DNA of 39,299 bases from Escherichia phage phiHAO2-2. The position numbers and the translations under genes were made by a program. Of this stretch, positions 8,790 to 9,645 are shown piece after piece. Numbering within the stretch: the stretch's first letter is position 1; each line of letters opens with the position of its first letter. The notes under the pieces are model-generated. The model searched no databases and had not been told where the DNA came from. It saw only the letters and a list, made by a program, of their open reading frames with translations. Location: the sequence record PP079212.1; one strand, given 5' to 3'.

Positions 8790-9241
8790 TGGCCCAATGG
8801 TCTGCAAAACGGGGGCACTCTGTGGGTGCCTACCGCTCTGGACTTGAAGCCAAGAACCAGCAGTGGCTGGAACAGAACGGCGTCAAAGCGGAGTACGAAA
8901 GCCATTATATCAACTATGTGATTCCGGCTTCCGACCACAAGTACACACCAGACTTTATCCTTCCTAACGGTATCATCGTGGAGACAAAAGGTATCTTTGA
9001 TAGCGATGACCGTAAGAAGCACCTTCTGGTACGAGAACAGCACCCAGAGTTAGACATTCGGTTCGTGTTCTCAAGTTCACGCTCCAAGTTATACAAAGGG
9101 TCTCCGACCACGTATGGCGCATGGTGCGAAAAGAACGGCTTTAAGTTTGCCGATAAATTCATCCCGGTTGAGTGGCTTCGAGAGGCGACTGTACGTATGC
9201 CTTCAGGTATACTCATTCCAAAGAAGAAAGGAGTTAAGTGA
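8789..9241 (+). CDS. Endonuclease I, Holliday junction resolvase (gp3)
   Basis: 150 aa. YVIPAS.H.YTPDF.LPNGI.VETKG...SDDRKKHLL.REQHPELDIR.VFSSSR.KLYKGSPT.YG closely matches T7 gp3. Start overlaps the SSB stop (TAATG). Confidence 0.93.
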   Translation: MAQWSAKRGHSVGAYRSGLEAKNQQWLEQNGVKAEYESHYINYVIPASDHKYTPDFILPNGIIVETKGIFDSDDRKKHLLVREQHPELDIRFVFSSSRSKLYKGSPTTYGAWCEKNGFKFADKFIPVEWLREATVRMPSGILIPKKKGVK

Positions 9242-9645
9242 TGAGTAAGACTTATCGTGTTCTAAATACGTTTTGGAACCGTTCCGTTGCGGAAATGCTA
9301 AGCAAGTACTGCGCGCCAATTGGTGAGACCTTTGTTGCTACCGAAGAGAACCACGAATTCATCAACGGTATGTTCCGCTGGCGCTTTGAGGAAGTGAAAC
9401 CTGAAGTCCACTCTGTGACTGCGGTTCCTGAAGTTTCCATCACCCGTAAGCGCCTGACAATCGACAAGATTGCCGTGGGTCAGACGTTCATCGTCCACGG
9501 CAAGCCTGACGAAGTTTACGTGAAGATTAGCAACTCACACGTCTTCAATCATAAGCGTCTCCAGATGCACACCACGGACGCACAAAGATTCACCCAGCAC
9601 CTGAATCTAGTGGTAGTAGAATTGGTGGTGTACAATGGTAAGTAA
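9238..9645 (+). CDS. Hypothetical protein
   Basis: 135 aa ORF coupled to endonuclease I (ATGA overlap). Lies between the gp3 and gp3.5 homologs, which are adjacent in T7. Confidence 0.5.
   Translation: MMSKTYRVLNTFWNRSVAEMLSKYCAPIGETFVATEENHEFINGMFRWRFEEVKPEVHSVTAVPEVSITRKRLTIDKIAVGQTFIVHGKPDEVYVKISNSHVFNHKRLQMHTTDAQRFTQHLNLVVVELVVYNGK

Follow-up and report, generated by a model that had tools for sequence, protein, structure and literature searches.

The closest described counterparts of the gene considered here are gp3.2 of the Escherichia phages K1F and EcoDS1, gp3.01 of the Citrobacter phages CR8 and CR44b, and gp18 of phiHAO1-1, all encoded at the same locus between genes 3 and 3.5 and coupled to their neighbours in the same way. 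In T7 the two flanking genes abut, gene 3 at 10257-10706 and gene 3.5 at 10706-11161, with no gene between them. The subject of this analysis is the corresponding open reading frame (ORF) of Escherichia phage phiHAO2-2 (PP079212.1), located between the endonuclease I (gene 3) and lysozyme (gene 3.5) homologs; the whole stretch of 39,299 nucleotides (nt) that was analyzed is called the window below. A sequence-only reading had noticed the ORF, described genes 3 and 3.5 of T7 as adjacent, and taken the ORF as an insertion to which no function could be given. This description of T7 was right, and since the T7 genes abut, the ORF is extra relative to T7.

Judged by its similarity to sequenced relatives, the window is a near-complete genome of a K1F-like phage (Kayfunavirus), and the ORF is not an insertion peculiar to it. 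The region from gene 3 to gene 3.5 has 99.9% DNA identity to phiHAO1-1 and about 95% identity to K1F, EcoDS1, LM33_P1 and many other Kayfunavirus phages, with the alignment to the latter falling into two pieces. The protein is identical to GenBank gp18 of phiHAO1-1 and matches PHROG 15211 at 1.3e-42 (residues 64-134) and PHROG 16385 at 7.2e-42. It shares with this gp3.2 family the homologous C-terminal domain, the position between genes 3 and 3.5 on the same strand, and an invariant sequence motif. On these sequence grounds the ORF is the already annotated gene 3.2 of K1F-like phages, and the identity of the gene is settled.

A conserved core with exchangeable N-terminal modules

Gene 3.2 of the window consists of the following parts.

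9241..9645, plus strand: coding sequence of gene 3.2, 134 amino acids (aa) and a TAA stop; the mechanical ORF begins at GTG 9238
9241..9405, plus strand: N-terminal module of class A, residues 1-55, isoelectric point (pI) 5.8; a rare exchangeable module
9250..9452, plus strand: variable cassette between two conserved recombination junctions, seen with blastn against related loci
9421..9642, plus strand: conserved C-terminal domain, residues 61-134 (74 aa), pI 9.8; in many relatives the complete gene 3.2 consists of this domain alone
9529..9591, plus strand: invariant motif SNSHVFN-x4-QMHTT-x3-RF, residues 97-117, with columns invariant or nearly so

When the family is aligned, the C-terminal part is invariant and the N-terminal parts cannot be aligned at all. 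The C-terminal domain is about 90% identical to those of K1F and EcoDS1, and among 55 sequences it has 40 invariant columns and a mean column entropy of 0.38 bits. In 13 of 23 IMG/VR loci the gene, located directly after gene 3, consists of nothing but this domain (74-76 aa). Dev2, SH3-5 and others likewise differ from the window in having only the 74-aa core, and the annotation table in PMC4925675 gives gp3.2 of Dev2 and the SH phages as 74-75 aa, which fits the core-only form. In the same table some Citrobacter SH phages have an endonuclease I of only 72 aa (the C-terminal half; PHROG 27028) beside a 75-aa gp3.2; gene 3 may be split there, or the annotation may be at fault.

Presence across related phages, a check that the sequence-only reading had suggested, was surveyed in 50,697 GenBank phage records. 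The C-terminal domain was found in 219 of them, invariably directly after gene 3, and the carriers are, with hardly any exception, K1F-like phages whose hosts are Escherichia, Salmonella, Enterobacter, Citrobacter, Cronobacter and other enterobacteria. Altogether 257 homologues were found in a set of 5.8 billion proteins, and the family is narrow, forming 11 clusters at 50% identity (phmmer, 1.84 billion representative proteins). A divergent copy is present at the equivalent position in Providencia phage PSTCR2, as part of a subfamily of 34 divergent proteins from Providencia phages. These lie at the equivalent locus and have the same two-part design, with a core that is about 46% identical overall and retains the SNSHVFN-x4-QMHTT-x3-RF motif.

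The two parts of the gene also differ in constraint. Among seven class-B genes, the ratio of nonsynonymous to synonymous substitution rates (dN/dS) was 0.12 in the C-terminal domain vs 0.36 in the N-terminal module. In comparison with CR8, the proportions of nonsynonymous and synonymous differences (pN/pS) were 0.10/0.61 in the C-terminal domain (ratio about 0.17) and 0.40/0.83 in the N-terminal module, the corresponding values of the neighbours being 0.10/0.69 for gene 3 and 0.15/0.79 for gene 3.5. These values indicate that the C-terminal domain evolves under purifying selection as strong as that on the flanking enzyme genes. Because of this matching constraint and the 257 homologues, gene 3.2 is more than a chance ORF and counts as a real protein-coding gene of the middle (class II) group. 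In one metagenome protein of class B (P0029, 157 aa) the first approximately 60 residues look out of frame while the C-terminal domain is intact; the frameshift is either a sequencing error or a sign of a decaying N-terminal module.

Five classes of N-terminal modules, A to E, were distinguished in the K1F-like set, class D with two subtypes. Their occurrence in GenBank was counted with tblastn, and the matches listed lie at or beside the endonuclease gene in annotated records.

Class A: MSKTYRVLNT..., carried by the window; 3 records (phiHAO1-1, and CR8 twice)
Class B: GWPxGTIVTKC...YKHG...GMWGAWV, carried by K1F and EcoDS1; 56 records, mostly Escherichia
Class C: MTTCKDLxVG...WNGH; 27 records
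Class D: subtype D-i with 22 records (Salmonella 20 of 22) and subtype D-ii with 11 records (Enterobacter 8 of 11)
Class E: KGYKFPVTVTGTV...GRWGNGD; 2 records

The other approximately 100 records have the core alone or different modules. Further module types were found in proteins P0127 and P0128 and in the Providencia phages, and across the family the module length varies from 55 to 85 aa. Homology among the classes was rejected, as hhalign comparisons between them showed no relationship (all probabilities ≤22%). Thus K1F and EcoDS1 gp3.2 differ from the window protein in carrying an unrelated class B module of 76-84 aa, the similarity to class A being limited to the first eight residues. Class A occurs among GenBank phages only in phiHAO1-1 and in Citrobacter phage CR8, in the latter at 52% identity, and nine variants of it are present in the protein databases. 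By this census the module of the window is a rare allele.

Modules may be absent, single or doubled in tandem. Tandem proteins combine B with C (P0123 and P0137) or B with D (P0133). In the PSTCR2 locus (1743-2775) endonuclease I is followed by a 152-aa gene 3.2 homologue with a new N-terminal module, then by two small ORFs and the endolysin; the first of these small ORFs (2202-2555) has a counterpart in metagenome protein P0170, where it forms the N-terminal module fused to a gene 3.2 core. In the full-length AlphaFold2 (AF2) model the N-terminal module is well modeled and the C-terminal domain poorly, residues 1-50 of module A having a predicted local distance difference test (pLDDT) score of about 90 and a beta-alpha-alpha-beta-beta arrangement. 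As modeled, the N-terminal module is an independently folding plug-in unit.

At the DNA level, the similarity to eight of nine related loci ends in blastn at 9244-9260, mostly at 9249-9250 just past codon 3, and restarts at 9445-9453 (residue 71-72, ...RLTIDK), with flanks about 83-96% identical. The ninth locus, that of CR8, shares class A and aligns over the full length at 72%. Both junctions are conserved, one at codon 3-4 and the other in the linker/LTIDK region. The linker has two alleles, KPEVHSVTAVPEVSITRKR and KPQVLPASSVPPVTVKREV, which are independent of the module class, and the window combines a CR8-type A module and a type-1 linker with a K1F-type C-terminal domain. Only the 5' portion at 9250-9452 behaves as an inserted or exchanged cassette; the gene as a whole may have been gained in the K1F lineage or lost in that of T7.

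The modules are nevertheless constrained proteins, since pN stays below pS. In module B the entropy is 1.16 bits vs 0.38 in the C-terminal domain, and hypervariable positions are set in a fixed scaffold; judged by these comparisons, the core changes far more slowly than the modules. The kind of module does not follow the receptor, because the window phage and K1F both have a K1 endosialidase tailspike, yet different modules.

Start codon, gene coupling and transcription unit

The junctions of gene 3.2 with its neighbours and the promoters around it include these features.

9228..9233, plus strand: Shine-Dalgarno sequence AAGGAG of gene 3.2, within the 3' end of gene 3 and 7 nt before ATG 9241
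8789..9241, plus strand: gene 3, endonuclease I (Pfam Phage_endo_I 8.6e-82), upstream and translationally coupled
9635..9645, plus strand: overlap of genes 3.2 and 3.5, 11 nt, from the lysozyme ATG at 9635 to the gene 3.2 TAA at 9643-9645
9635..10093, plus strand: gene 3.5, amidase/lysozyme (Pfam Amidase_2 4.9e-16; PHROG 822 at 1.2e-79), downstream neighbour
8029..8047, plus strand: phage promoter of phi2.5 type, an exact match to the EcoDS1 phi2.5 promoter core, opening the unit 2.5-3-3.2-3.5-3.7
10329..10347, plus strand: next phage promoter, before gene 4, a promoter-core match

The sequence-only reading had placed the ORF correctly between endonuclease I and lysozyme, and both identities were borne out by the profile matches; its start codon and its overlap with gene 3 needed correction. 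The six-frame ORF list gives 9238..9645 (plus strand), initiated by GTG, with 135 aa. The true start is almost certainly ATG 9241, giving a product of 134 aa, because the homologues all begin with M-S/T-K, phiHAO1-1 gp18 is annotated from the same ATG, and AAGGAG lies 7 nt upstream (...AAGGAG TTAA GTG ATG AGT AAG...). The stop codon of endonuclease I, TGA 9239-9241, has one base in common with ATG 9241-9243 (TGATG), and a start at GTG 9238 would mean a GTGA overlap. The ATGA overlap that had been claimed is not present, as the window reads GTGATG instead; it was found in a relative (L009), where gene 3 ends at 2495 and gene 3.2 starts at 2492. Translational coupling to endonuclease I thus stands, but through a one-base overlap of stop and start. 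Also the claim that the ORF runs into the lysozyme start agrees with the 11-nt overlap, the ribosome-binding site and ATG of gene 3.5 being located within the final codons of gene 3.2. From this arrangement of the sequence, gene 3.2 is read as translationally coupled on both sides, with endonuclease I before it and lysozyme after it.

A scan of the whole window with the K1F/EcoDS1-type promoter core CCTAAACTATCACYKTAGG gave 11 plus-strand matches (1820, 5353, 7049, 8029, 10329, 16830, 19651, 20655, 25062, 32339 and 38596) vs 0.04 expected by chance, and these form a promoter map of the genome. There were no phage promoter matches from 8047 to 10329, and a search for internal promoters and terminators gave sigma-70 and terminator matches at chance level only. 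Gene 3.2 is probably co-transcribed with genes 2.5, 3, 3.5 and 3.7, as all of them lie between the promoter matches at 8029 and 10329. The searchable literature included no Kayfunavirus transcriptome or phenotype paper on gene 3.2.

Some further features of the window and its relatives were recorded. A related phage (IMG/VR UViG 2706795479, locus L006) has a 149-aa HNH-type endonuclease ORF at 1373-1822, between genes 2.5 and 3. The window lacks this ORF at the corresponding junction, 8789, and its position equals that of T7 gene 2.8. The junctions of this gene cluster are insertion hot spots. At 32408-35602 the window encodes a K1F-type endosialidase tailspike of 1064 aa (End_beta_propel 4e-221), and because of this tailspike type the K1 capsule is probably the target of the phage. 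The window also has a gene for the DNA mimic Ocr at 671-1003 (Pfam ocr match). A protein of 147 aa at 7353-7796 has DUF3310 at residues 71-133, preceded by a 70-residue N-terminal extension (MVKVGDTVNYVGP...VAVVKWP) that resembles a small beta-barrel domain; the counterpart at the K1F locus is annotated as 1.7/1.75.

Possible roles of the core and the modules

The sequence-only reading had left the function of the ORF blank, and profile, sequence and fold searches likewise gave no functional match. When the window protein and representatives of every module class were compared with Pfam, NCBIfam and PADLOC, only sub-threshold noise was obtained, including MqsA (15 bits), SorB, DruB (16 bits) and CFAP95. 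Two of these were considered further and rejected. The match to the MqsA antitoxin (PF15731; E 0.027) is under the Pfam gathering threshold of 30 bits and was not repeated in other family members, and that to the PADLOC defence protein DruB (E 9e-4) was limited to the window protein, seven other members giving nothing. The DUF11 repeat (PF01345) was rejected as well: the alignment covered a hairpin motif of about 27-36 residues (PxGxTFV...NG.v.W) and not the repeat of about 114 residues, and the score of the match in P0129 was inflated by the 17 repeats of the target, so that it was regarded as chance similarity at motif level. A match to a chitin-binding repeat protein in the phmmer search of the 1.84 billion representatives was rejected for the same reason. 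Of the several anti-defence families within Pfam, among them ocr, which matches the gene at 671-1003, none matched gene 3.2. Sequence-profile searches of the PDB with the C-terminal domain and modules A, B and D gave nothing below E 0.2, and Foldseek found no match in PDB and only the CR8 homologue in BFVD.

The model to which about an even chance is given has two parts, a constant core that binds a conserved partner and an exchangeable module for host adaptation. The basic core domain would bind either nucleic acid or a protein, of phage or host, that is conserved, and would alone suffice in many phages. The N-terminal module would add or redirect a host-specific interaction, its target being most plausibly a variable host factor, e.g. 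a defence protein, and could in this way serve as an adaptation module in the arms race between phage and host. We infer the two binding roles, and the connection with host defence, from four observations: near-identical genomes exchange the modules like cassettes, the modules evolve fast although their scaffold is conserved, they are skewed by host genus, and they are optional, tandem or split in their occurrence. All four are circumstantial. That the module acts specifically against host defence is suggested only tentatively. Doubtful, too, is the most detailed version, a plug-in adaptor for counter-defence or host takeover, in which the SNSH/QMHTT site of the C-terminal domain would dock on or act on a conserved target, each N-terminal module would recognise a different host defence or factor, and the locus would serve as a specificity cassette, swapped by recombination, for re-tooling against new hosts.

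Several results weigh against these proposals. The dN/dS of the N-terminal module is overall below 1, so that positive selection is not demonstrated, and phage lineage and sampling confound the uneven distribution of the module classes over hosts. An N-terminal module is lacking in about half of the relatives, which thrive nonetheless, so that the module is dispensable in some hosts. The C-terminal domain modeled alone by AF2 with the most diverse alignment reached a pLDDT of 45, and no binding surface or active site could be read from it. Within the searchable part of the literature, the sole mention of a phage "gp3.2" was the annotation table in PMC4925675, with no phenotype reported there.

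According to an alternative that is rather unlikely, gene 3.2 is an accessory of DNA metabolism, whose basic C-terminal domain would bind DNA or gp3, lysozyme/RNA polymerase or gp2.5 and modulate recombination, the breakdown of DNA or the switch between transcription and replication, the N-terminal modules being largely neutral add-ons shuffled by recombination. The gene does lie in the class II DNA-metabolism cluster, where it always follows gene 3 directly, with coupling to genes 3 and 3.5, and this is so even in the distant PSTCR2; its C-terminal domain is basic and constrained like both of these genes, and the core is by itself enough in about half of the phages. However, the rigid gene order of T7-like phages makes position weakly informative, T7 performs all such functions without gene 3.2, and no DNA-binding fold was detected. 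Neutrality of the modules in particular is contradicted by pN below pS, by the confident AF2 fold, and by conserved scaffolds with variable positions.

A selfish mobile element of the homing-endonuclease type, comparable to T7 2.8 and 3.8 at neighbouring junctions, is a very improbable source of the gene, which would then be its remnant or cargo, with a 5' part made variable by repeated invasions. Junctions of the cluster do host HNH genes (T7 2.8 and 3.8, and the 149-aa ORF of L006), and the C-terminal domain has conserved His and Asn residues (SNSHVFNH...MH). The H-x2-N-x6-H spacing is, however, too short for a classical HNH motif, and an HNH reading of these residues was rejected because of the atypical spacing (3 and 7 residues) and the lack of profile matches, no HNH match being found in Pfam, NCBIfam or PHROGs at E≤1 and none to GIY-YIG or LAGLIDADG in these collections. 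Furthermore, the gene is at one fixed position in 219 phage records and not patchy, and its 74-aa core is smaller than known homing endonucleases. The idea that the gene is a translational coupler or spacer setting the expression of lysozyme (gene 3.5), its peptide being unimportant or the ORF spurious, draws on the overlaps at both ends and on the gene 3.5 ribosome-binding site and ATG within the last codons, but is scarcely credible given the amino-acid constraint throughout the C-terminal domain (the low dN/dS, the invariant columns, and the motif kept in the divergent subfamily) and given that T7 links gene 3 to gene 3.5 directly.

The gene itself is not new: it has long been annotated in K1F-like phages, and phiHAO1-1 has an identical copy in GenBank. 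The point of interest is the architecture, in which an invariant 74-aa core is joined to sharply bounded, unrelated N-terminal modules among otherwise near-identical coliphages of therapeutic type. If the modules govern success on hosts, for instance by countering defence as the two-part model allows, the locus would be a receptor-independent determinant of host range. This would bear on the choice and engineering of K1F-type phages for therapy and would supply a small, naturally occurring scaffold on which modular anti-defence function could be tested.

Comparison with known systems

With the T7 HNH genes 2.8 and 3.8, gene 3.2 shares the position of an extra small gene wedged among essential class II genes. 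It differs from them in having no HNH motif or profile match, and in being fixed in the genus and not sporadic.

The T7-group proteins Ocr/gp0.3, gp1.2, gp2, gp4.5 and gp5.9 are small early or middle accessory proteins that bind host proteins and vary among relatives. By analogy, the gene 3.2 product may be likened to them, as it is small, stands outside the basic replication machinery, and varies between relatives. It has no sequence or fold similarity to them, and its core is basic, unlike an acidic DNA mimic.

Phage tail-fibre and tailspike proteins may pair an anchor domain that is conserved with receptor-binding modules that are exchangeable. Gene 3.2 departs from them in that its variable part is N-terminal, the protein is only 8-25 kDa, the gene lies among DNA-metabolism genes, and the module is independent of tailspike type. 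Like them, however, it joins a constant domain at a conserved junction to interchangeable, unrelated modules that differ among close phages. For the tail proteins, variable combinations of anchor and enzymatic domains have been described in the BASEL paper (PMC11990801).
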